DNA of 64,000 nucleotides from Dethiobacter sp. (GCA_003605065.1 QZJM01000049.1:208-64207); one strand, 5' to 3'; counted from the stretch's first letter, positions 1 to 19,386 are shown. A program made the numbers and translations. The notes: generated by a model from the sequence alone, not told the origin.

Positions 1-539
1 TATATCAACACCATAAGGTTCAAGTAAATCCAGTGCCGTAATAATATTCTCCTGATTTAACCCCCCCGCAAGAATAAGGGGGATAGTCCTTTTATAAAAA
101 GGCCTGGCCAGTCGCCAATTGAAAGTTTGACCTCCTCCACCCTTTTTATCTGTATATTTAGTATCCAGTAGAATAGCGCTAACAAGGTATTCCCGGCACC
201 TTTCTAGTGATAAAGAGGACGATGCCAAAAAAGTTTTGATAATTTTATATGTGGGAAACCGGCGGCAGTACTCCGCTGTCTCCTCGCCGTGAAACTGTAA
301 GGTATCCAGCCTGCAATAAGCAGCAATCTCTCTTACTTTTTCGTCTTCTTCGTTGACAAAAACGCCCACTTTCCCGATAAAAGGAGGCAGTTCCTTGATA
401 ATAGCTGCCGCTTTTTCAGGACTTATCCGGCGGGGACTGGCAGCAAAGACAAATCCCAGAGCATGAACGCCTTCTTCCACGGCTGCCAGAGCCTCCCGGG
501 GAGTAGTAATACCGCAGATCTTAACGCGTACAGGACACA
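1..539 (-). CDS. trpF: phosphoribosylanthranilate isomerase (TrpF), C-terminal part cut by window edge
   Basis: Minus-strand translation from the ATG at 539-537 (MCPVRVKICGITTPREALAAVEEG...) matches the PRAI N-terminus. It overlaps the trpC stop by 19 nt. It is absent from the ORF track because it runs off the window. Confidence 0.8.
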
Positions 540-1327
540 TCTTCCCCCAGCAGCTCCTTTATTTTGGCAACAGGATCGCTACTGCTCATAAGGCTATTAC
601 CAACAAGAATAGCATTCACTCCCAACTCTTTCAACTGCTTCACCTGCTCCCGGCAGTGAATACCGCTCTCCGAAATCAAAACCCTGTCGCGGGGAACATA
701 GGGACCCCATTCAAGAGTCCTCCTAAGATCAATCTCCATAGTATGGAGGTTACGGTTATTGATACCTATGATCTCCGCCCCCGCCTGTACCGCCCGAAGA
801 ATTTCTTCCTTTTTACCTACTTCTACTATGGCAGCCATTCCCAGCTCGTGGAGCAACTGCAAAAATCTTTTTAACTCCGTAAAAGCCAGTAGAGAGGCAA
901 TAAGCAGGACAGCATCTGCTCCCATGGCCCTGGATTCATAAATCTGGTACTCATCCACGATAAAATCCTTACGAAGGACAGGTATGCTTACAGCACTCTT
1001 AGCGCTCTTTAGATCTGCAGGACAGCCGGCAAAATATTTTGCCTCTGTTAACACAGATATGGCCGCTGCGCCGGCTTCCTGGTATAAAAGGGCGATTTCG
1101 GCCGGGCTTTTAACCTGTGCAAAATGAGACTCAATTACTCCGCAAGAGGGGGAGGCTTTTTTAATCTCCGCTATAATGCTTAGCTGCGGAAAACGCTTTT
1201 GAACTGCCTCTTTAAAGTTTCTTGCCGGAGAGATTAAAGGCAGCTGCTTGATTATTTCCTCCAGGGGATATTCTTTTTTCTGCCTGATAACTTCCCTCCA
1301 TTTATGAGCAGCTATCTCTTTAAGCAT
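521..1327 (-). CDS. trpC: indole-3-glycerol phosphate synthase
   Basis: 268 aa with the IAEIKKASPS, LRKDFI and INNRNL motifs typical of IGPS. Start overlaps the trpD stop. Confidence 0.9.
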   Translation of the reverse strand: MLKEIAAHKWREVIRQKKEYPLEEIIKQLPLISPARNFKEAVQKRFPQLSIIAEIKKASPSCGVIESHFAQVKSPAEIALLYQEAGAAAISVLTEAKYFAGCPADLKSAKSAVSIPVLRKDFIVDEYQIYESRAMGADAVLLIASLLAFTELKRFLQLLHELGMAAIVEVGKKEEILRAVQAGAEIIGINNRNLHTMEIDLRRTLEWGPYVPRDRVLISESGIHCREQVKQLKELGVNAILVGNSLMSSSDPVAKIKELLGEDVSCTR

Positions 1328-2375
1328 GAGCTCTTCCCCCTTCTATCCTCCTGGCAGATTCCCGCCGGTACGAGGAAAACTCCACCAGGGCCTGAAGTTT
1401 TTCATAAGCCGCTCCTGAATCAATAGATTTTTTTGCCAGCTCAATCCCTTCCCTGATACTTGAGGCCAGGCCGGAAACGTACACAGCCGCTCCCGCATTT
1501 AGTAAAACAACATCCCGGTATGGCCCTTTTTCCCCTTTCAGTACCGCCAAACAGGAATAAGTACCCGCTGCAGTATCCCCACCCTTCAGAGACCTCATCG
1601 AAACCCTGGAAAAACCAAAATCTTCCGGTGTAATAATATAGCTTTGTATGTTCCCGTTTTTCATTTCCGTTACTTTAGTCTCTGCCGTAAGTGTAATTTC
1701 GTCCAAGCCATCCCCACCGGCTACCACCAGGACATGTTCGGAGCCCGAAGAGGCCAGTACCGCAGCCATTTTTTCTGTTAACGCCGACTCGTAAATTCCC
1801 AGCAGCTGCCTTCTTGCTCCTGCCGGATTATTCAAGGGGCCCAGGAGATTAAAGATGGTCCGCACTCCCAGAGCTTTTCTTGCCGGGAGCGCATGGGCCA
1901 TAGCCGGGTGTAATAAAGGTGCGTACAAAAATCCCAGGCCGATTTCATTGAGACAATGCTCTAGATCTCCAGTAGACAATTCCAAATTTATGCCTAAAGC
2001 TTCACAGAGGTCTGCACTACCGCACTGCCCGGACACAGCCCTGTTTCCGTGCTTGGCCACCGTTATCCCGGCTCCGGCTGTAACAAAGGCGCTCACCGTA
2101 GAAATGTTAAAGCTCCCCTTGCCGTCTCCCCCTGTACCGCAGGTATCCACCAAAGGAGTCCTGGTAACGGAAATTTTAATGCTATGTTCGCGAATGGCCT
2201 GGCAGCTCCCCAGTATTTCATCTACGGCCTCACCTTTGCAACGAAGGGCGACAAGATAAGCAGCAACTTGAGCCTCTTTAAATTCACCTTTCATTACCTG
2301 TCTCATGACCTGGTAGGCCTCTTCACAAGTTAGATTTTCGTGATGTATCAACTTTTCCAGGAAATCTTTGATCAT
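1320..2375 (-). CDS. trpD: anthranilate phosphoribosyltransferase
   Basis: 351 aa with DTCGTGGDGKGSFNIST and AKHGNRAVSGQCGSADLCEALG motifs. Confidence 0.9.
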   Translation of the reverse strand: MIKDFLEKLIHHENLTCEEAYQVMRQVMKGEFKEAQVAAYLVALRCKGEAVDEILGSCQAIREHSIKISVTRTPLVDTCGTGGDGKGSFNISTVSAFVTAGAGITVAKHGNRAVSGQCGSADLCEALGINLELSTGDLEHCLNEIGLGFLYAPLLHPAMAHALPARKALGVRTIFNLLGPLNNPAGARRQLLGIYESALTEKMAAVLASSGSEHVLVVAGGDGLDEITLTAETKVTEMKNGNIQSYIITPEDFGFSRVSMRSLKGGDTAAGTYSCLAVLKGEKGPYRDVVLLNAGAAVYVSGLASSIREGIELAKKSIDSGAAYEKLQALVEFSSYRRESARRIEGGRAHA

Positions 2376-2378
2376 TTT

Positions 2379-3041
2379 TTAACCCGGGATTACTCCAGGG
2401 TGTTCACCTCCTGCAGAATGATTACGTTTAAAGGTTTCCCCTTTAATCTTTAAATTCTCTTCAGTGGTAATAAGGCCGGAAATCAGGCAAAAATTAGCCA
2501 GGATCATACGTCCCCGGGGAGTAAACAGGGACTCGGGGTGAAACTGCAACCCTATCAGATTGCGATAAAGTTTATGCCGGATAGCCATAATTTCCTCCTC
2601 CTCCGTGGCCGCGATAACTTCCAGAGAGGAAGGCAAGCCCCCGGCCAGGATAAGAGAATGATAGCGCATGGCCTCGAAAGGTGAATCTACCCCTTTAAAA
2701 ATGCTGTCCCCCTGATGGTAAACAAGAGAAGTTTTTCCATGCATAAGGTGAGAAGCTCTCACAACCCTGGCGCCAAAGTAAGCCCCGATAACCTGGTGTC
2801 CCAGGCATATACCCAAAATAGGAAGACGGTTTTTAAAAAAACCCACCGCTTTCAAGCTCAACCCGGCGGTGGAAGGCTCTCCCGGTCCCGGCGAGATAAC
2901 AACAGCCCGCAAAGGCATCTCTTCCAGCTCTTCCAGGTTAAAAGCATCATTGCGGCGAACATCCACGTCCAGCCCCATAGAACCCAGTTCTTGAGCCAGG
3001 TTAAAAGTAAAAGAATCGTAATTATCGATAATTAAAATCAT
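2379..3041 (-). CDS. trpG: anthranilate synthase component II (glutamine amidotransferase TrpG/PabA)
   Basis: 220 aa class-I GATase with ILGICLGHQ (Cys nucleophile). Overlaps the trpE end. Confidence 0.88.
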   Translation of the reverse strand: MILIIDNYDSFTFNLAQELGSMGLDVDVRRNDAFNLEELEEMPLRAVVISPGPGEPSTAGLSLKAVGFFKNRLPILGICLGHQVIGAYFGARVVRASHLMHGKTSLVYHQGDSIFKGVDSPFEAMRYHSLILAGGLPSSLEVIAATEEEEIMAIRHKLYRNLIGLQFHPESLFTPRGRMILANFCLISGLITTEENLKIKGETFKRNHSAGGEHPGVIPG

Positions 3042-4557
3042 TTTCCCACTCCTCGGCTAAGCTTATGGCCCGTAAAGAACTGGCCATTTTATGTTCTGTT
3101 TCTTCATACTCCCTGCAGGGGTCAGAATCAGCTACAATTCCTGCCCCGGCCTGAATAAAAGCCTGGCCGTGATCGAACAACAAAGTCCTTATCGTGATAC
3201 AGGTATCCATATCCCCGTTAAAGCCCACATAACCTACGGCCCCGGCATAGGGCCCCCGGGGAAGCGGTTCAAGTTCAGCGATAATTTCCATAGCTCTTAC
3301 CTTGGGCGCACCGGAGACCGTTCCCGCGGGAAAAACAGCACGTAAAAGATGGGTAAAATTGTATTCCGGACGGATTTTTCCCCTGACTTCGGAAACAAGG
3401 TGCATAACATGAGAAAAATATTCTATCTCCAGCAACTTGATTACTGCTACGCTGCCGTAACAACAGACTCTCCCCAGGTCATTTCTGCCCAGATCCACCA
3501 GCATCATATGCTCAGCCCTCTCTTTTTCATCTTTACTGAGCTCTGCAGCCAGGGAAAAATCTCTTTTTTCGTCCTGACCCCGCGGCCTGGTCCCGGCGAT
3601 AGGCTTAGTATAAGCCAGGCCCTTCTCAAGCCTTACCAGCATCTCCGGTGAAGAACCTATCATTTGAAAATGAGGAAAGAAAAGATAAAACTGGTAAGGT
3701 GAAGGGTTCAGGCTGCGCAGAGCGCGGTAAATATTAAACGGAAGGGCTGCCGTTTCCTGTTGCGCTTGCCTGGAGAGCACAACCTGGAATATCTCTCCTG
3801 CCCTTATATATTCCTTGGCCCTGTTAACCGCTGCTATAAAGCTAGCTTTGGTAAACGACCGTCTAACCCCCAGATCGGTGGAAAGGTCACTACAAGAAGC
3901 AACTTTCTCCAACGCATCCCCCTCCATACAACATTGATAACCTTGCCCTTGATTAACATTATTTAAAATATTTTCCAGCTCCTTGGAGGCCTTCTCATAA
4001 ATGTTCTCCAGATTATCTCTGTTGTTATTTATGGAGGCCACGTAAACAGCTGTTAAGAGATGCTTCTTGTGATCATAAATAAAAACTTTGCGGGGGAAAT
4101 AAAAATAGCACGAAGGCCACCTGCTTTCCTCCTCTATACCTGGCACTTTCTCCCACCGCTTAACCATATCATAAGAGAGATAGCCAACGGCTCCACCCCA
4201 GAAAACGGAAAGCTCCTCTGGTTGATAAACATGTAAGCTTTTAAAAATATTCTCTAAAACGTTCAGCGGGTCATCTCCCGAACGCCATCGTTCTCCATTC
4301 TCTTCCTGAACAACCGTGTCACTGCCCAGGGTATAAAGGGTTAAAAAGGGCTCGCTTCCGATAAATGAATACCTGGACTTTTCCCCCAGTTCCCCGCTTT
4401 CCAGCAAAAAGCTCTCCCTGCAATAGGAAGCCAGCTTGACATAGAGAGAAATAGGGGTCTCCAGGTCGGCCGGAACTGTTTTAAATACAGGTATGATATC
4501 ATAATCTTTGCCCAGCCGATTAAATGTTTCCCTATCCGGTTTAATCAATCGCCGCAC
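3022..4557 (-). CDS. trpE: anthranilate synthase component I
   Basis: 511 aa chorismate-binding enzyme (GTRPRG..., LVDLGRNDLGRV motifs). The track start is GTG at 4557. A better-spaced TTG at 4548 follows an AAGAGGTG RBS. Confidence 0.88.
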   Translation of the reverse strand: MRRLIKPDRETFNRLGKDYDIIPVFKTVPADLETPISLYVKLASYCRESFLLESGELGEKSRYSFIGSEPFLTLYTLGSDTVVQEENGERWRSGDDPLNVLENIFKSLHVYQPEELSVFWGGAVGYLSYDMVKRWEKVPGIEEESRWPSCYFYFPRKVFIYDHKKHLLTAVYVASINNNRDNLENIYEKASKELENILNNVNQGQGYQCCMEGDALEKVASCSDLSTDLGVRRSFTKASFIAAVNRAKEYIRAGEIFQVVLSRQAQQETAALPFNIYRALRSLNPSPYQFYLFFPHFQMIGSSPEMLVRLEKGLAYTKPIAGTRPRGQDEKRDFSLAAELSKDEKERAEHMMLVDLGRNDLGRVCCYGSVAVIKLLEIEYFSHVMHLVSEVRGKIRPEYNFTHLLRAVFPAGTVSGAPKVRAMEIIAELEPLPRGPYAGAVGYVGFNGDMDTCITIRTLLFDHGQAFIQAGAGIVADSDPCREYEETEHKMASSLRAISLAEEWENDFNYR

Positions 4558-4646
4558 CTCTTTTCCCAGCTATAATTTTAATTAAATAACCAGGCAAAAT
4601 AAATTGGGGAAATTAAATCTACCCCATTAAACAACCACTTCGGGTG

Positions 4647-5489
4647 CTAAGACTGGATATTCAATGGGAGAAAGCCCACACCGGAGTAAAAGTCAGAAAC
4701 CCGCAACCCGGAGTTCCACACTATCTTCTTTGTAAGAAATTCAAAAAGATAGGGATTGAGCACTTTAAGATAAGTACCCTTCCCCCCCAGCGAACGAGAT
4801 TCAATTACTCCGGCGCATTCAAGCTTCCGTAACGCGTTAGCTATTACCGAACCAGCTATACCCAGTTTTCTGGTTACGAGGATTCCTTCGTTATTACCAA
4901 GTTTTTCAAAAACATGTTCCACTGCCTCCCGCTCCGAACAAGAAAGCGTATCAAGTGCCAGTCTGAGAACTTCTTTATAGCGCATCTCTTTTTCAGTTTC
5001 CTCTACTTTTAAGCGCAGCATCTCCATGCCGGTAATAGCTGCCCCATTTTCAGCAAGAATTACGTCTTCAACCCCGAAAAGCCCGTCAAAGCGTACCAGA
5101 ATTACAGTGCCCAGCCGTTTACCACCGCCGATAATCGGAATTTCCGCAACAATTTTATCAGTATAAGGGCATGATTGCCCTTCAAGAAAAATACAGTCCT
5201 GAGGTTTTTGCTGCAGGTTAATTTTTAATTCATTGCTTTTTAGGAGATACTTGTTATATCCCTCCGGAAATCGCTCCTTTTGTACCAGGTTTATCATAAT
5301 TTTACATTTAAAATTGTCTACAAGGGCATACCCTTTAATTGATCCTTGAAGATCGGCAATATAAACACTGGCATGGATAACATTTTTAAGGACCCCGGCA
5401 ATATCTTTAAAACTGATATGCTGTCCTGCTGCTTCCTGAAGAATTTTGTTAATACAACGGATTTTCTTTAATAAGGAAGAAGTAATCAT
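4647..5489 (-). CDS. codY: CodY-family GAF + winged-HTH transcriptional regulator (paralog embedded in trp operon)
   Basis: The C-terminal region VILAENGAAITGMEMLRLK...EREAVEHVFEKLGNNEGILVTRKLGIAGSVIANALRKLECAGVIESRSLGGKGTYLKVLN aligns almost residue-for-residue with the B. subtilis CodY HTH domain, and the N-terminal GAF-like region (PIIGGGKRLGTVIL) also aligns. It carries a ~20 aa C-terminal extension. A 215-bp gap lies upstream. Confidence 0.8.
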   Translation of the reverse strand: MITSSLLKKIRCINKILQEAAGQHISFKDIAGVLKNVIHASVYIADLQGSIKGYALVDNFKCKIMINLVQKERFPEGYNKYLLKSNELKINLQQKPQDCIFLEGQSCPYTDKIVAEIPIIGGGKRLGTVILVRFDGLFGVEDVILAENGAAITGMEMLRLKVEETEKEMRYKEVLRLALDTLSCSEREAVEHVFEKLGNNEGILVTRKLGIAGSVIANALRKLECAGVIESRSLGGKGTYLKVLNPYLFEFLTKKIVWNSGLRVSDFYSGVGFLPLNIQS

Positions 5490-5704
5490 TTCTTTACCTT
5501 CTTTCTTTCACTTCTCATTTTTAAAAAAGGCGTAGGTTTTGCCAGCCGTCCCACATGAAATATAGGGCCGGAACTATGAGAAAAAGGGCACACCCAGTAA
5601 GAATGCCGTGACAAATAGTATTTCCTATGTGATTGCGAAATCCTACCCTGAAAGGCCGGTAAGGTATCCACCTGCGATTATTAGAACGCCTCCCGTTAGA
5701 TGGT

Positions 5705-6499
5705 TCACAGCAGGGTTCCGGTTTCCACTAGCGCCTTTTTTACAGAGCAAATAAATTCGAAAACAGCCGGTTTCCAGTCCTTTTCGCTGCCCATTAAATG
5801 GACAATACTGCTGCCGATGATCACGCCGTCTACACTAACTGCCACCTCTGCCGCCTGCTCCGGGGTAGAAATACCAAAACCCATACATAATGGTTTGGCT
5901 GATAATCTCCTGACTTTGGAAACTAACCTGTTTAATCCTAGGGGAAGGTTTTTTCTCATGCCGGTAATCCCTGTAACCGAAACAAGATAGATAAACCCCC
6001 GTGAACGTTGTGCTATCTCTTTAATGCGATGCTCAGGGCTGGTAGGAGCAATAAGAAAAATTAAGTCGAGGTTGTACCCTAAGGTGGCTTTTTCCAGAAG
6101 ACCGGCCTCATCTAAAGGTAAATCCGGAATAATCAATCCATCGATACCGGCACAGGAAGAGTCAGCGCAAAAAAGATCTAAACCATAGCGAAAAACGGGA
6201 TTATAGTAGGTCATAAAAAGTAGTGGAATATCCACTTTCTGCCTGATGAGGCGGGCAGTCTCCAGGCACTTAGCCGGAGTTATACCATTTTGCAGGGCCT
6301 TATAGCTGGCCTGCTGGATGGTTACCCCATCAGCCATCGGATCGGAGAAAGGAATGCCCAGTTCAACCACGTCTACGCCGCATTTCTCCAGCAAAGGCAC
6401 TGCCTCCAGGGTTGCCTCAACGGTAGGATAACCTACTGTAACAAAGGCAATAAGGGCAGCATGGTCCCGTCCGGCAAAAACAGAAGCAAGGCGTGTCAT
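5705..6499 (-). CDS. trpA: tryptophan synthase alpha chain
   Basis: 264 aa with [22 protein letters not shown] and GFGIS motifs. Overlaps the trpB stop. Confidence 0.92.
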
Positions 6500-7716
6500 G
6501 ACCCCACCTCCGGCATTTTACTAATAATGTCCATATCTTTATCTCCTCTTCCGGAAAGGTTAACGACAATAACCTGTTCCCGTTTTAGGGAACCGGCCAG
6601 CTTAAGGGCATGAGCGATGGCGTGAGCAGGTTCCAGGGCCGGTATGATTCCCTCTGTGCGGCTGAGCAAGTGAAAAGCCTCCAGAGCATAACGGTCCTCC
6701 ACGGCCACATATTGAGCACGACCGGTATCTTTAAGAAAACTGTGTTCCGGGCCCACACCGGGGTAATCCAGACCGGCCGAAATACTGTGAGTGGATAAAA
6801 TCTGGCCGTCCTCATCCTGCAGCAAAAAAGATTTCGCCCCCTGCAGCACCCCTACTTTTCCTGCAGTCAGAGAAGCGGCGTGTTTGTTACTCTCCAGACC
6901 CTGCCCCCCTGCTTCCACACCGATGAGCTTTACCTGTGGATCGTTTAGGAAAGGGTAAAAGATACCCATAGCGTTAGATCCACCTCCTACGCAGGCCAAT
7001 ACATAGTCAGGCAAAGCACCTCTCGCACCCAGAATTTGTTCCCTTGCCTCTCTCCCAATGACTGCCTGGAAATCGCGGACCATCAGGGGGTAGGGATGCG
7101 GCCCCACAACTGAGCCCAGCAGGTAGTAAGTGCTCTGTACATTGGTCACCCAGTCACGGAAAGCTTCATTAACGGCATCTTTAAGGGTCCTGGCCCCGCA
7201 TGTAACCGCTTTTACCTCCGCTCCCAAAAGCCTCATGCGAAAGACGTTGGGAGCCTGCCGGTGTACATCCTCTTCTCCCATATAAACAACACACTCTAAT
7301 CCCAGTAAGGCAGAGACGGCAGCAGCAGCAACACCGTGCTGGCCCGCCCCTGTTTCGGCAACCAGGCGTTTTTTTCCCAGCCTTTTGGCCAGCAGCCCCT
7401 GCCCCAAGGCGTTGTTGATCTTGTGCGCTCCCGTATGCAAAAGATCTTCCCGTTTCAGGTAAATGCAAGCACCTCCCTGTAGCTCGCTGAGTCGCTTTGC
7501 TTCATAAAGAGGAGTGGGACGCCCAGACCAGTGCCTTGATAAATGGTAAAATTCCTCCTGAAAGGCCGGATCCTCCCTGGCCCCGCAGTACGCTTCGGTA
7601 AGCTCTTCCAGGGCAGGGATCAACACTTCGGGGACAAACCGCCCTCCAAATTCTCCATAATAACCACGTTCATCCGGCATCATGTCCATTTCAATCCCCC
7701 TTTTACTGCACGACAA
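6496..7716 (-). CDS. trpB: tryptophan synthase beta chain
   Basis: 406 aa with [17 protein letters not shown] (PLP lysine) and GGGSNAMG motifs. Confidence 0.93.
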
Positions 7717-7719
7717 ACT

Positions 7720-8388
7720 CTACACCTGGTATCGCCGCGCCGCTTTGATAAATTCCCGCACCTTTGCTCTATCGAGCTGCTTTCCTGAAATAACAGAGGA
7801 AAAGGCATCCACTGCATATGGCTGTACCTTTCTAACTGCCTCTGCTACATTATGTACATGCAATCCACCCGCAAGGATGAGGGGCTTGGGCCCGATAGCA
7901 TCTTTGATGCGACGGGCCACATCCCATGCCACGGTTTTACCGGTGGACCCGACTTTTCCTTCACCGTAGCTGTCCAGCAAAATTGCATCTGCCCCGGCTT
8001 TTATATAGTCCAGGGCACAGCGTTCGGGTCCATCCCCTCCTGCCAGACAACCTCCCTGGAAATGAAGGGTTTTAATAATCTTAATGTTAAGTTTCTTCTT
8101 GAGAGACACAACATCTTCCGGAGTATTAAATCCATGCAGCTGCACCGCATGGGGATAAACGTATTCTACCATGCGGCAAACCTCTTCAACCCGTTCCTCG
8201 GTGAGGATAAGGATGCCGGATACCATTGGAGGGATAAGGGCAGAGAGTTCTCGTGCCTCCTCAAGGGAAAGCCGGCAGAAAATTTCCTGCCTTACCTCGG
8301 TAATCAGACCGATGGCATCAACCCCCTCCTCCACCAGCAGCTGGATATCTCCTGCATTCCTACTGCCGCAAAGCATCACCCTGGCCAT
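7720..8388 (-). CDS. trpF: phosphoribosylanthranilate isomerase, second copy
   Basis: ORF 7720..8412. The likely start is the ATG at 8388 (MARVMLCGSRN...), one base after the trpC2 TAG stop. PRAI-like TIM barrel (ILAGGL, VDAFSSV). Confidence 0.8.
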   Translation of the reverse strand: MARVMLCGSRNAGDIQLLVEEGVDAIGLITEVRQEIFCRLSLEEARELSALIPPMVSGILILTEERVEEVCRMVEYVYPHAVQLHGFNTPEDVVSLKKKLNIKIIKTLHFQGGCLAGGDGPERCALDYIKAGADAILLDSYGEGKVGSTGKTVAWDVARRIKDAIGPKPLILAGGLHVHNVAEAVRKVQPYAVDAFSSVISGKQLDRAKVREFIKAARRYQV

Positions 8389-8389
8389 T

Positions 8390-9139
8390 CTAACTCCCTC
8401 CTGCCCGCACAAGAAAGGAAACCGTCCCGGCAGGATCCCCGGAGAGCATCAAGGCAGTACCGACCAGCACGGCATCAGCTCCGGCCTCGATGGAACATCT
8501 TATATCTGCTGCACTCCGGTGGGCACTCTGGCTTATTATTACAGCATCTCCTGCCACCTCACGGAAGCTGGCGACAATCTCCGGGGTGATTCGGACCAAA
8601 TCTTCCCCCATCTCCAGCTCGTCAATATTTTTGTTATTTATGCCGATCATAAGTGCCTTTTCACCAAGAGTGTTCAGGTAATGCAGATCCTGCTCCCCTC
8701 TTGTTTCAATCAGAGCATGCATGCCACAGGAATAAACGTACTCCAACATAGCAGGAAGATTTTCACCCAGCAGATGTGCATGAAGAAGTAAAGTTACCCG
8801 GCCAGTAAAGGAGGGCTCCAACCTTTCCGTAATTCCCGCATAAAAGTCTACTTCCTTCCCCTCCAGGATAAAATCCTTAACAAGCAGGGGTAAAGAGGTG
8901 GCCTGCAGAACTGCAGGGATGTCTTTTTCGGGCTCTCCACCAAAATACCGGCGCTCTGTAACAAGGGAGATCCCGGCGGCTCCGCCTTTCTGGTACAACC
9001 CGGCCAGTTGGCCGGCATCCCGCTCATCGCGGGGCCGGCCACACCCGGCTGCCAGTTTGGGAATTAGTCTTTTTATCTCAGCCACAATGGGGATTACTCC
9101 CCTGGTTTGAGTGAGTCTGATTGATTCCAGCAGGTTCAA
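8390..9139 (-). CDS. trpC: indole-3-glycerol phosphate synthase, second copy (short N-terminus)
   Basis: 249 aa with IVAEIKR, LLVKDFI, IGINNKNI motifs. Starts at TTG. The in-frame TAG three codons upstream prevents a longer N-terminus. Overlaps the trpD2 end by 62 nt. Confidence 0.8.
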   Translation of the reverse strand: MNLLESIRLTQTRGVIPIVAEIKRLIPKLAAGCGRPRDERDAGQLAGLYQKGGAAGISLVTERRYFGGEPEKDIPAVLQATSLPLLVKDFILEGKEVDFYAGITERLEPSFTGRVTLLLHAHLLGENLPAMLEYVYSCGMHALIETRGEQDLHYLNTLGEKALMIGINNKNIDELEMGEDLVRITPEIVASFREVAGDAVIISQSAHRSAADIRCSIEAGADAVLVGTALMLSGDPAGTVSFLVRAGGS

Positions 9140-10169
9140 CTTCGCCTACCCCCTTTACTTCCCGGGACCTGTTACGTATTTCCAACATCTTAGCCATGGC
9201 ATTGCCGGAGTCCAAAATCTCCCGGGCCTGTGCCACCCCTTCAAAAAGGGAAGAAGCTTTACCCGCCACTACCAGTGTGGCCGCTGCATTCAACAGCAGC
9301 ATATCACGTTTAGGGCCGGTCTCCTTCCCGCTAAAAATATCCAGGATAATCCTGGCATTGAACTGCGGATCACCCCCCCGGATCTGATCGATAGTACAGC
9401 GCTTCATACCAAAATCTTCCGGGACAATGGTATAATTTTCTATCTTTCCTTCTTTGATCTCCGCTATACTGGTCTCTCCAAGAAGTGAAATTTCGTCGAT
9501 ACCATCAAGGCCGTGAATAACCATGGCATGGGTAAAATCCAGCTCAGCTATTACCTCCGCTACCTGTTCTATCAGCCGGGGCTGGTAAACTCCCAAAACG
9601 TGTCTTTTGGCATTGGCAGGGTTTATGAGAGGACCGATGATGGTAAAAAAAATAGTTTTAATACCAAGATCGTTTTCTGGAGTAAATACTTTCATCATCA
9701 CCGGATGGAAAAGAGGAGCATAGAGGAAAGAAAAACCCACTTCTTCAATTAGCATCTCCGCCTGGCGGGGCTCAAGCTCAACCTCTATTCCCAGAGCTTC
9801 CAAAACATCGGCGCTTCCCGAAGAAGCAGAGATAGAACGCGATCCGTGCTTAGCAATCTTTACGCCAGCTGCGGCAGAAAGCAGGGCATTGGCGCTGCTA
9901 ACATTGAAAGTGGTAAGCCCACCACCCGTTCCACAGGTATCGGTTAATTCACCGTTAACCAGCGGCCTGATAGGAATACAGGCTTTACGCATTGCCCTGG
10001 CAATAGCCGCTATTTCACCGGTAGTGGGACCTTTCATAAGGAGGGCCATCAGGAATCCCGCTATTTGTGTTTCCGAAAAGCGATCTTCTTTAATACCAAA
10101 GATCAGATCATCTATTTCATGTTGGTACAGCTCTAGTCCCCTGGACAATTTTTGTAAAATCTCTTTCAT
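9078..10169 (-). CDS. trpD: anthranilate phosphoribosyltransferase, second copy
   Basis: 363 aa with DTCGTGGGLTTFNVSS (Gly in place of the usual Asp after GTGG) and AKHGSRSISASSGSADVLEALG. About 33 aa C-terminal extension. RBS GAGAAAGGAG upstream. Confidence 0.8.
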   Translation of the reverse strand: MKEILQKLSRGLELYQHEIDDLIFGIKEDRFSETQIAGFLMALLMKGPTTGEIAAIARAMRKACIPIRPLVNGELTDTCGTGGGLTTFNVSSANALLSAAAGVKIAKHGSRSISASSGSADVLEALGIEVELEPRQAEMLIEEVGFSFLYAPLFHPVMMKVFTPENDLGIKTIFFTIIGPLINPANAKRHVLGVYQPRLIEQVAEVIAELDFTHAMVIHGLDGIDEISLLGETSIAEIKEGKIENYTIVPEDFGMKRCTIDQIRGGDPQFNARIILDIFSGKETGPKRDMLLLNAAATLVVAGKASSLFEGVAQAREILDSGNAMAKMLEIRNRSREVKGVGEVEPAGINQTHSNQGSNPHCG

Positions 10170-10299
10170 AAGTCAGATACTCCTTTCTCAGTTTCAGGTT
10201 AAAATAAAATTCTTTACTTTTTTTAATAAAAAAAGTTTTACAGGCCCTTGCGGGCCAAGCCCATTTATTAAGAAATAAAAACATCGCAATACCTCCTTT

Positions 10300-10612
10300 A
10301 TAAATTAAAAAAGCCTCTTGCCCAAATAAGGACGAGAGGCTTGCTTTCGCGGTGCCACCTTAATTGCCGGTAAAAATAATTAACCAGCATCTTTCTCAGG
10401 TACGGCCCAAAATTGCGTGGGCGATACCCTGAACTCTGCTAACGGTGCTCACTCCGGCAAAAACTACTAGGTAATAACCGTTCGTCATGCAATTCTTGAG
10501 TCCATTCGCTCTCTGCGCCTGGACCGGGCTCACACCTTTTCCCGGTTCTCTGGGCCTTCGCTCGAGAGTTACTAGTCTCATTCATAATTTTTTACATTAT
10601 GATGTTAGTTCT
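10300..10612 (-). promoter_or_regulatory. T-box riboswitch leader, putative Trp (UGG) specifier, with intrinsic terminator
   Basis: Minus strand reads AATTAAGGTGGCACCGCGAAAGCAAGCCTCTCGTCC...GGCAAGAGGCTTTTTT (T-box 14-mer plus terminator). Stem I carries AGAGAG-CGAA-UGG-A-CUCAAG, matching the GAA-codon-A specifier context. A second GC hairpin plus U-run lies at about 10241-10260. Confidence 0.75.
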
Positions 10613-18969: not shown

Positions 18970-19300
18970 AGATCAAAAAACTTCCATCCCATAGGGACGG
19001 AAGTTTAATCTTCACGCGGTACCACCCTGGTTAGGCACATAGTGCCCCCCTCTTATTAGAGTACGGACCAGAATTTTCCGCCCGATACCCTTAATACATA
19101 GTGCTTTTCAGCAGTGGTGTCAGGTACGGACTGAAAGCATTCCAGTCTTATACCCCCTTCCTTTTAACGGTGGAAGTTTCCGTCAAAGCCTACTAACCGT
19201 TAAGGCGTTATCGGCTTTCGGTTTGCTTCTCAGGAGTGTATTTCAGCAATTTAGGACACCGGGTCGCACCATCCCCCGGCTCTCTGAGATCCGTTTATTA
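18970..19300 (-). promoter_or_regulatory. T-box riboswitch leader (complete), putative Tyr (UAC) specifier, terminator 18974-19006
   Basis: Minus strand reads AACCAGGGTGGTACCGCGTGAAGATTAAACTTCCGTCCCTATGGGATGGAAGTTTTTT. Upstream are an F-box-like CCGTTAAAAGG and a Stem I carrying AGAGAG...GAUGGUG...GAAAUACAC (AA-UAC-A). Confidence 0.7.
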
Positions 19301-19386
19301 CCTACTTCTCTCCGTCATCGCTTTACTTAATTTTCTTGTACCGAACCGATGTTTAACCGGTAATACCAGCTTCTTCTCTACCTTTT

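Follow-up and report, generated by a model that had tools for sequence, protein, structure and literature searches.

A Dethiobacter tryptophan locus with trpD, trpC and trpF present twice, possibly joined from two partial trp operons of different ancestry

Results

We analysed a 64,000-nucleotide stretch of DNA from Dethiobacter sp. (GCA_003605065.1, QZJM01000049.1:208-64207; hereafter "the window") that carries, near its beginning, a tryptophan biosynthesis locus in which trpD, trpC and trpF are present twice. The explanation that we favour, with a probability of about 0.6, is that the locus is a single tryptophan cluster composed of two partial trp operons that are isofunctional, differ in ancestry and lie side by side, and hence probably an ordinary pathway assembled from two parts and not a novel one. 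Profile searches placed eleven trp and codY-like genes at 1-10,600, all on the minus strand, in the order Trp T-box, trpD2-trpC2-trpF2-trpB-trpA, codY-like gene, trpE-trpG-trpD-trpC-trpF (the canonical D, C and F products are called TrpD1, TrpC1 and TrpF1). Only D, C and F occur twice, trpB and trpA being single copies, and the 64-kb window contained no additional trp or codY copies outside the locus; a first-pass annotation of the sequence had described the gene order and the doubling in the same way. Loci carrying relatives were labelled L001-L093, and the sequence around each relative's match was taken as ±10 kb. The same gene arrangement is present in a second metagenome sample (L002) besides the source contig (L001, a 73.8-kb contig from a Joint Genome Institute (JGI) metagenome).

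The first part of the locus, which we call block A, consists of a Trp T-box leader (10325..10594, minus strand, as is every feature of the locus), a small leader open reading frame (ORF) with Trp codons (10117..10284), trpD2 (9078..10169; TIGR01245, 359.8 bits against a cutoff of 199), trpC2 (8390..9139; PF00218, 102 bits), predicted to encode a short synthase of indole-3-glycerol phosphate (IGPS), trpF2 (7720..8388 from an ATG, or to 8412 from the TTG of the mechanical ORF; PF00697, 71.7 bits), trpB (6496..7716, with a likely start at 7689 from the gene call on L001; TIGR00263, 630 bits) and trpA (5705..6499; TIGR00262, 270.8 bits). Together these genes would provide all of the steps from anthranilate to tryptophan. 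The second part, block B, consists of the codY-like gene (4647..5489), trpE (anthranilate synthase component I, 3022..4557; PF00425 and PF04715), trpG (glutamine amidotransferase component II, 2379..3041; TIGR00566, 202.9 bits), a canonical trpD (1320..2375; GTGGDG, KHGNR and GVRTIFN; TIGR01245, 411.9 bits), a canonical trpC with an N-terminal extension (521..1327; NF001377, 305.7 bits against a cutoff of 260) and a canonical trpF (1..537), the 3' end of which lies beyond the window edge and the full gene of which encodes 212 aa on L001. Block B has the appearance of a standard clostridial early-pathway block without trpBA of its own, and it would make anthranilate and take it to indole-glycerol phosphate (IGP).

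Ancestry and history of the two gene sets

The two copies of each doubled gene are clearly diverged, as had been noted at first pass, with 41% amino acid identity for D (E 9e-90), 33% for C (2e-27) and 34% for F (4e-22), a similarity that greatly exceeds chance but is much too low for a recent duplication. In neighbor-joining (NJ) trees built from TrpD, TrpC and TrpF sequences taken out of 80-odd loci, the D2, C2 and F2 proteins of the window each fell within a narrow-family clade supported by 100/100 bootstraps, apart from D1, C1 and F1, and the variant TrpC partners of D2-type TrpD proteins formed a matching clade (97/100). A recent in-paralogue origin or tandem duplication was rejected on the basis of the 33-41% identities and the separate 100/100 clades.

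Searches with TrpC2 returned about 110 protein clusters (~250 aa, 42-81% identity), nearly all of them metagenomic, and the narrow TrpC2 family was present in 7 of 185,579 species representatives. In all contexts examined, the TrpC2 relative adjoins a TrpD2 relative (68-78% identity outside the lineage, 76-88% in L092 and L093) and also a TrpF2 relative (52-62% identity, 75% in L093), with the exception of L092, which lacks F2. trpB and trpA are often located 3' of the D2-C2-F2 block, and trpE and trpG were not found within the ±10 kb around the block outside the window lineage. Carriers of the block include a Moorellales metagenome-assembled genome (MAG; L003/L012), a metagenome contig (L004), L006/L013, a Dethiobacter MAG (L008), a Clostridia MAG (L009), the cultured Pelotomaculum terephthalicicum JT (L010), a Dehalococcoidales MAG (L011), Bacillota MAGs (L014 and L091) and a close relative of the window (L093). 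Because the same block stands alone in other anaerobes, the second set appears to be an old, self-contained and horizontally spreading unit, not a local duplicate. The first-pass proposal of an ancient fusion of two partial trp operons agrees with these distributions, D2C2F2(BA) occurring independently elsewhere and canonical relatives having the arrangement T-box-EGDCF(BA) or T-box-BA-EGDCF. The contig of L006/L013 (GCA_050259035.1, JBLMZW010000210.1) bears the label Chitinophagales; with its Spo0E-like gene, TRAP-type leader and Bacillota-type D2C2F2BA block, it looks like Bacillota and has probably been mis-binned or mislabelled.

TrpD2 also belongs to a wider clade of D2-type TrpD proteins, which is supported by 100/100 NJ bootstraps and by signature indels. 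This clade includes delta-proteobacterial D-C-F clusters (Syntrophaceae, Syntrophorhabdus and Desulfobacterales), many Bacillota T-box-trpB-A-D-C-F operons (Peptococcaceae, Syntrophomonadaceae, Desulfosporosinus and gut Clostridia) and the second TrpD copy of a Thermoleophilia MAG. In that MAG (L080, 2371-11379), trpE-G-D-(short C fused to F)-B-A is followed by a D2-type trpD and by further copies of trpC and trpF, an independent case, in another phylum, of doubled D, C and F. Of the best 150 TrpD matches among 1.84 billion cluster representatives, only about a dozen were D2-type, a small TrpD subfamily. Canonical TrpD homologues number more than 8000.

Comparison with the closest relatives suggests how the present arrangement came about. 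The TrpD proteins most similar to the canonical TrpD of the window are encoded in L090 (T-box-EGDCFBA, 62% identity), L089 (T-box-EGDCF, 69%), L088 (157-7656; chorismate mutase, Trp T-box and trpB-A-E-G-D-C-F, 70%) and L092 (T-box, leader ORF, D2-C2-B-A, a reverse-strand pheA and E-G-D-C-F, 74%). The D2-C2-B-A block of L092 is 0.9 kb from trpEGDCF. L093 carries D2C2F2BA with a TrpD2 88% identical to that of the window, and its canonical block is probably elsewhere on the same contig, since its TrpD1 homologue (P0122) is recorded on a contig of equal length (47,773 bp). L092 is equally distant from the window in both sets (76% for D2 and 74% for D1), and the two sets were therefore co-inherited and already together in an old ancestor. 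The TrpB and TrpA proteins of the window are 77% and 66% identical to those of L088, alongside 68-78% for the canonical genes; identities to the B and A proteins of stand-alone blocks are slightly lower, at 72% and 60%. For the trpBA-EGDCF order of L088, the best explanation is the window arrangement minus D2-C2-F2 and the codY-like gene, and some descendants have undergone piecemeal loss, of the whole triad in L088 and of F2 alone in L092. Retention of D2 and C2 without F2 in L092 implies that the D2/C2 pair can make use of canonical TrpF and that the two sets share the same intermediates.

Both sets are under purifying selection. Ratios of nonsynonymous to synonymous substitution rates (dN/dS) were 0.06-0.15 for all genes in comparison with L092, for which synonymous sites are saturated, and 0.09-0.20 in comparison with L093. 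With an overall range of 0.06-0.20 and with catalytic residues kept, neither copy has the features of a pseudogene, a state that the first-pass annotation had considered for one of them.

A separate type of cluster emerged from the same loci. It is present in L027 (9537-13342) and also in L020, L060, L064, L085 and L015, from NC10, Desulfobacterales and Lentisphaerae, and it encodes proteins resembling AsnC, TrpC (in a short form) and TrpF, a protein with a RibD C-terminal (reductase) domain, and a highly divergent TrpD-like protein that has GTGAD and VRHAAR and lacks an equivalent of Arg193. These clusters do not contain trpBA, and they may represent a truly different, non-tryptophan pathway.

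Features of the variant enzymes

TrpD2 carries both TrpD Pfam domains (PF02885 and PF00591) in the two-domain architecture. Its loop for phosphoribosyl pyrophosphate (PRPP) is GTGGG-LTTFN, one residue shorter than GTGGDG, so that the GTGGG noted at first pass in place of GTGGD is indeed present and is accompanied by a one-residue deletion; the GTGGD form is absent. The GTGGG form is invariant in 27 of 27 D2-type sequences and is part of a signature (GTGGG-L(T/S)TFN, KHGSRSIS and LGIKTIF(F/Y)T(I/V)IGPLINP) that is invariant across the clade, and canonical TrpD proteins, including TrpD1 of the window, have GTGGDGxxTFN, KHGNR and G(V/I)RT(V/I)F-N(I/L)LGPL(T/N)NP. In characterized anthranilate phosphoribosyltransferase (AnPRT), GTGGD contacts PRPP and the amino group (PMC9835598). 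TrpD2 keeps the Mg2+-binding DE (GLDGIDEIS) and the AKHGSR and SGSAD PRPP contacts, and we infer that it could catalyse the conversion of anthranilate and PRPP to phosphoribosylanthranilate. Identity with the YbiB-type proteins, DNA-binding members of the same fold family that bear the same label, "TrpD2", was rejected: the window protein scored 45.5 bits with NF006005 against a cutoff of 185, and YbiB lacks the PRPP and Mg2+ motifs (PMC9835598), whereas TrpD2 of the window has both.

The C-terminal extension of TrpD2 and the 62-nt overlap of trpD2 with trpC2, both pointed out at first pass, are real in the window, but no functional meaning should be attached to them. In L093 and L092, the trpD2 stop and the trpC2 start lie in an ancestral 4-nt TTGA overlap. 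In the window, one nucleotide has been deleted just before TTGA, and the TrpD2 frame therefore runs on to the next stop, its last ~20 codons being a read-through tail. The more distant relative L091 has lost one base at the same aligned position. We rejected a functional role for the tail and the overlap, since they are by-products of the deletion and are not conserved.

D2-type TrpD domains, 47-60% identical to TrpD2, also occur in fusion proteins (P0365, P0366, P0367, P0383, P0363, P0361 and P0389), in which the GTGGG/KHGSR/GIKT signature is kept. The fusion partners are PAS and histidine kinase domains, PAS, GGDEF and EAL domains, an Lrp/AsnC ligand-binding domain, or TrpC. Use of the TrpD fold as a sensor module would be unusual.

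The start codon of TrpC2 is a TTG (9139) preceded in frame, 9 nt upstream, by a TAG, and because its N-terminus, MNLLESI, fits the family consensus MNLxESI, the short N-terminus is genuine, as is the absence of the N-terminal helix observed at first pass. The protein has 17 residues before beta1, compared with about 50 in TrpC1, and the profile match begins at position 40 of 254. The narrow TrpC2 family is marked by a 9-residue insert after KDFI, IPK for SPS and GINNK for GINNR. Residues E21, K23, K88, E145, N168 and S205 correspond to Glu51, Lys53, Lys110, Glu159, Asn180 and Ser211 of the Sulfolobus solfataricus enzyme and are family-invariant, catalytic residues being conserved across 82 members. 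The AlphaFold model of TrpC2 (mean predicted local distance difference test score, pLDDT, 94) is a (beta-alpha)8 IGPS barrel with a single short N-terminal helix, and its best matches in the PDB are all IGPS, with template-modelling (TM) scores of 0.75-0.80 (0.8 for Mycobacterium tuberculosis IGPS). The model also superposes on truncated S. solfataricus IGPS (PDB 2c3z) with a TM score of 0.86 normalised to the target. Both proteins lack the alpha0 lid and keep the barrel and the catalytic residues, but 2c3z is a laboratory deletion, whereas TrpC2 represents a natural family of >100 clusters, in which the 9-residue insert follows beta3 and Arg182 is replaced by Lys. In two database entries, TrpC2 homologues bear no label other than hypothetical protein.

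For trpF2, the ATG at 8388 is the likely start, as it was called on L001 and fits the N-terminus of TrpF2 in relatives. MLCG and ILLDS of TrpF2 align with KICG and ILLDT of TrpF1, so that the catalytic Cys and Asp, equivalent to Cys7, the general base, and Asp126, the general acid (Thermotoga maritima numbering), are kept.

Regulatory features

The T-box of the window is a full-length match to Rfam RF00230 (108 bits against a gathering threshold of 93) with a terminator/antiterminator and the specifier GAA-UGG-A (Trp). All 13 T-boxes that we aligned carry the UGG specifier, GAA-UGG-A being invariant; seven precede narrow-family D2 blocks, three precede wider D2-type operons and three precede the canonical operons of close relatives. 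A UGG T-box precedes the block in the window, L004, L008, L009, L011, L092 and L093. In L003/L012, L006/L013 and L014, by comparison, the sequence directly upstream of trpD2 contains 6-9 (G/U)AG triplets with 2-3 nt spacing and an intrinsic terminator (runs at 8859-8887 in L003, 8685-8728 in L006 and 8666-8708 in L014), and chains in shuffled sequence reached at most 4-5. L010 has interrupted (G/U)AG runs (~8700-8780), the longest strict chain being 3, which is below the shuffle maximum, together with a terminator. TRAP, the RNA-binding protein of trp attenuation, binds (G/U)AG repeats, 11 in number, in Bacillus subtilis trp attenuation (PMC3064811), of which they are the hallmark, and we infer that the (G/U)AG leaders may mediate TRAP-type attenuation outside the Bacillales; tblastn searches of the window and the 93 loci did not detect a TRAP (mtrB) gene. 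In the lineages examined, the D2 block thus always appears to follow a predicted tryptophan-sensing leader, either a UGG T-box or one of TRAP type. The likeness to B. subtilis extends to the T-box, which that organism uses in the control of anti-TRAP (PMC3064811) and which the window and other D2 loci use in a Trp-specific form. The window differs in that its T-box would act on the biosynthetic genes directly and has a conserved Trp-codon leader ORF behind it.

The leader ORF (beginning MFLFLNKWAWPARAC...) lies after the T-box terminator, has a strong ribosome-binding site and was called as a 55-aa gene on L002. Conservation is restricted to the first ~14 codons, with the core M(F/L)L(F/L)LN..W-x-W-P-(A/V)-R-A, and the ORF is present in the window, L093 (4323-4439), L092 (~2833-3030), L091, L008 and L011 and, only as a degenerate relative (..RWWPP..), in L004. 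Its two Trp codons are located on the 5' arm of a GGCCC-GNRA-GGGCC hairpin (GGCCC-GCAA-GGGCC in the window). The leader ORF may constitute a second, ribosome-dependent tryptophan checkpoint behind the T-box.

The codY-like gene between trpA and trpE encodes a putative regulator with GAF and HTH domains (PF06018 and PF08222) that scores above the cutoff of NF003170 (276 bits against 255) and below that of TIGR02787 (250.5 against 267.2). Its best non-self homologue among 5.8 billion proteins is 63% identical, compared with 81-88% amino acid identity for the relatives of its neighbours. The gene has a GC content of 0.42-0.44, lower than its neighbours, encodes a C-terminal extension of ~25 aa and is absent from the relatives L088, L092 and L093. 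It could be a divergent, lineage-specific CodY paralogue that acts as a lineage-specific regulator of trpEGDCF. A search for CodY boxes found no site near the locus, with fewer matches than in shuffled sequences; no second riboswitch or T-box was found in the trpA-codY-trpE spacers, and promoter and terminator scans gave matches not above shuffle expectation.

The trp locus is preceded by a second T-box (18990-19327, minus strand) with a UAC (Tyr) specifier, which heads an upstream aro operon (DAHP synthase ... chorismate mutase) running into the trp cluster. Given two T-boxes of different specificity, the whole ~20 kb can therefore be regarded as an aromatic supra-operon.

Discussion

In the model that we favour, both D/C/F sets would catalyse PRPP transfer, Amadori rearrangement and ring closure as partly redundant isoenzymes, and both would be kept by virtue of belonging to differently controlled units. 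Block A would be switched on by uncharged tRNA-Trp and could also use anthranilate from outside, and block B would carry the de novo flux. That block A makes tryptophan is strongly, if indirectly, supported by its tryptophan-specific leaders, by its possession of the only trpBA of the locus, by the conservation of catalytic residues and by the dispensability of F2 beside a canonical TrpF.

Operons of related composition are known. The chlamydial trpDCFBA operons are tryptophan-recapture operons. Streptomyces coelicolor reportedly holds extra trpC2, trpD2, trpG and trpE2 genes in its calcium-dependent antibiotic (CDA) cluster, and Nostoc is said to have a second trp set; PDB entry 1vqu, from Nostoc, is named "AnPRT 2". 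These are diverged second copies of middle-pathway trp genes beside a housekeeping set, as in the window, but they include anthranilate synthase and belong to secondary metabolism or dispersed loci, whereas the extra set of the window lacks EG, carries the sole trpBA and is tryptophan-regulated. Among gut bacteria, genomes with TrpDCFBA and without TrpEG have been described as likely anthranilate salvagers (the "A3" pathway variant; PMC9026213). Block A resembles the chlamydial and "A3" operons as a self-contained D, C, F, B, A block without an adjacent anthranilate synthase, for which outside anthranilate is proposed. It differs from them in that its D, C and F enzymes are a distinct subfamily with changed substrate-contact residues, in its T-box or TRAP-type leader and, in the window, in adjoining a canonical trpEGDCF so that D, C and F are doubled.

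Several observations weigh against our interpretation. In TrpD2, and throughout the D2-type clade, Asn138 is replaced by Ser and Arg193 by Lys (M. tuberculosis numbering), with one residue inserted after the Lys, and in AnPRT Asn138 and Arg193 hold the anthranilate carboxylate (PMC9835598). In TrpC2, the N-terminal alpha0 lid is absent and Lys occupies the position of Arg182 (S. solfataricus numbering), and Arg182/196 of IGPS contacts the carboxylate and the phosphate of the substrate (PMC7681013). The best NCBIfam scores were 130 bits for TrpC2 against a cutoff of 284, which is below all TrpC equivalog cutoffs, and 122.6 bits for TrpF2 against a cutoff of 215, below all TrpF cutoffs. TrpF2 lacks the SPR motif, having FCRLS after a 3-residue insert instead of SPRRIS, and Arg36 of that motif is presumably the residue that contacts the anthranilate carboxylate. 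Neither a terminator nor a promoter was resolved between trpA and trpE, and separate control of block B is therefore a proposal only. The Thermoleophilia MAG keeps a full canonical set in addition to its D2-type triad, and in the window lineage both sets have persisted until synonymous saturation, though simple redundancy should decay.

Given that all three enzymes of the D2 set are altered at their carboxylate-holding residues, we continue to give a small probability to the first-pass suggestion that one set serves another indole- or anthranilate-derived pathway. The variant triad would then have been neofunctionalised for another aryl amine, or for a substrate recognised without its carboxylate, and block A would be a distinct indole-ring route. 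The coordinated nature of the changes and the loss of the IGPS lid would fit such a history, as would the co-inheritance of D2, C2 and F2 as a unit and their stable coexistence with a canonical set in two phyla (the window lineage and L080), but the Arg-to-Lys changes retain the positive charge, and the UGG T-box or TRAP-type leader and the trpBA genes that usually follow indicate tryptophan as the product. IGPS can convert a decarboxylated substrate to IGP, although about 41,000-fold less efficiently (PMC7681013), and the D2-type domains located at the N-termini of PAS-histidine kinases and PAS-GGDEF-EAL proteins suggest ligand binding without pathway flux. However, L092 lacks F2 and L088 lacks the whole triad, such that the canonical enzymes evidently suffice, and no gene able to supply another precursor is conserved beside the D2-C2-F2 block in the loci examined. 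For the D2 set, the other-pathway suggestion is not supported. Even less likely, in our estimation, is a more specific version in which D2-type TrpD, lid-less TrpC and SPR-less TrpF form a co-evolved triad that uses a different substrate or precursor, the changed carboxylate-contact residues reflecting this use, which would provide some anaerobes with a tryptophan-regulated indole-ring route independent of canonical anthranilate handling and possibly of TrpEG.

The arrangement D-C-F-B-A/E-G-D-C-F is also what a tandem EGDCFBA duplication would leave after loss of the first EG and the last BA, and the further losses in relatives (D2C2F2 in L088 and F2 in L092) could be taken to mean that reciprocal loss (one copy shedding EG and the other BA) is ongoing after duplication or recent acquisition, the redundancy being transient and neutral. 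We consider this improbable, as paralogues that are 33-41% identical and belong to different deep clades do not derive from a local duplication, both sets were present in the common ancestor with L092 (saturated synonymous sites, dN/dS 0.06-0.15), and GC content differs only modestly between the blocks. Decay of one set into pseudogenes would account for the scores of TrpC2 and TrpF2 under the NCBIfam cutoffs and for loss of the ancestral TrpD2 stop codon, but it is scarcely credible for genes with intact ORFs, catalytic residues conserved in 82 family members, dN/dS of 0.07-0.20 and, for TrpC2, a model with a pLDDT of 94; we rejected it. Two partial trp operons of different ancestry, brought together in one tryptophan cluster, thus remain our preferred explanation.

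Tryptophan biosynthesis is a textbook pathway, and TrpD, TrpF and TrpC serve as models of how enzymes evolve and can be designed. As kinds, paralogous trp genes and partial trp operons are known, and the part worth following is the variant triad as a class; our search of the literature on doubled trpD/C/F, D2-type TrpD and lid-less IGPS in anaerobes found no description of it. For annotation, the consequence is that TrpC2 and TrpF2 are missed by NCBIfam cutoffs. What the locus presents is a coherent and phylogenetically deep variant of all three middle enzymes that moves as a block. If the variants are isofunctional with the canonical enzymes, they would show to what extent a conserved pathway tolerates drift of its substrate-contact residues and would also account for unusual operon orders, trpBA-EGDCF among them; if not, they would point to an unrecognised branch of aromatic metabolism in syntrophic and subsurface anaerobes.

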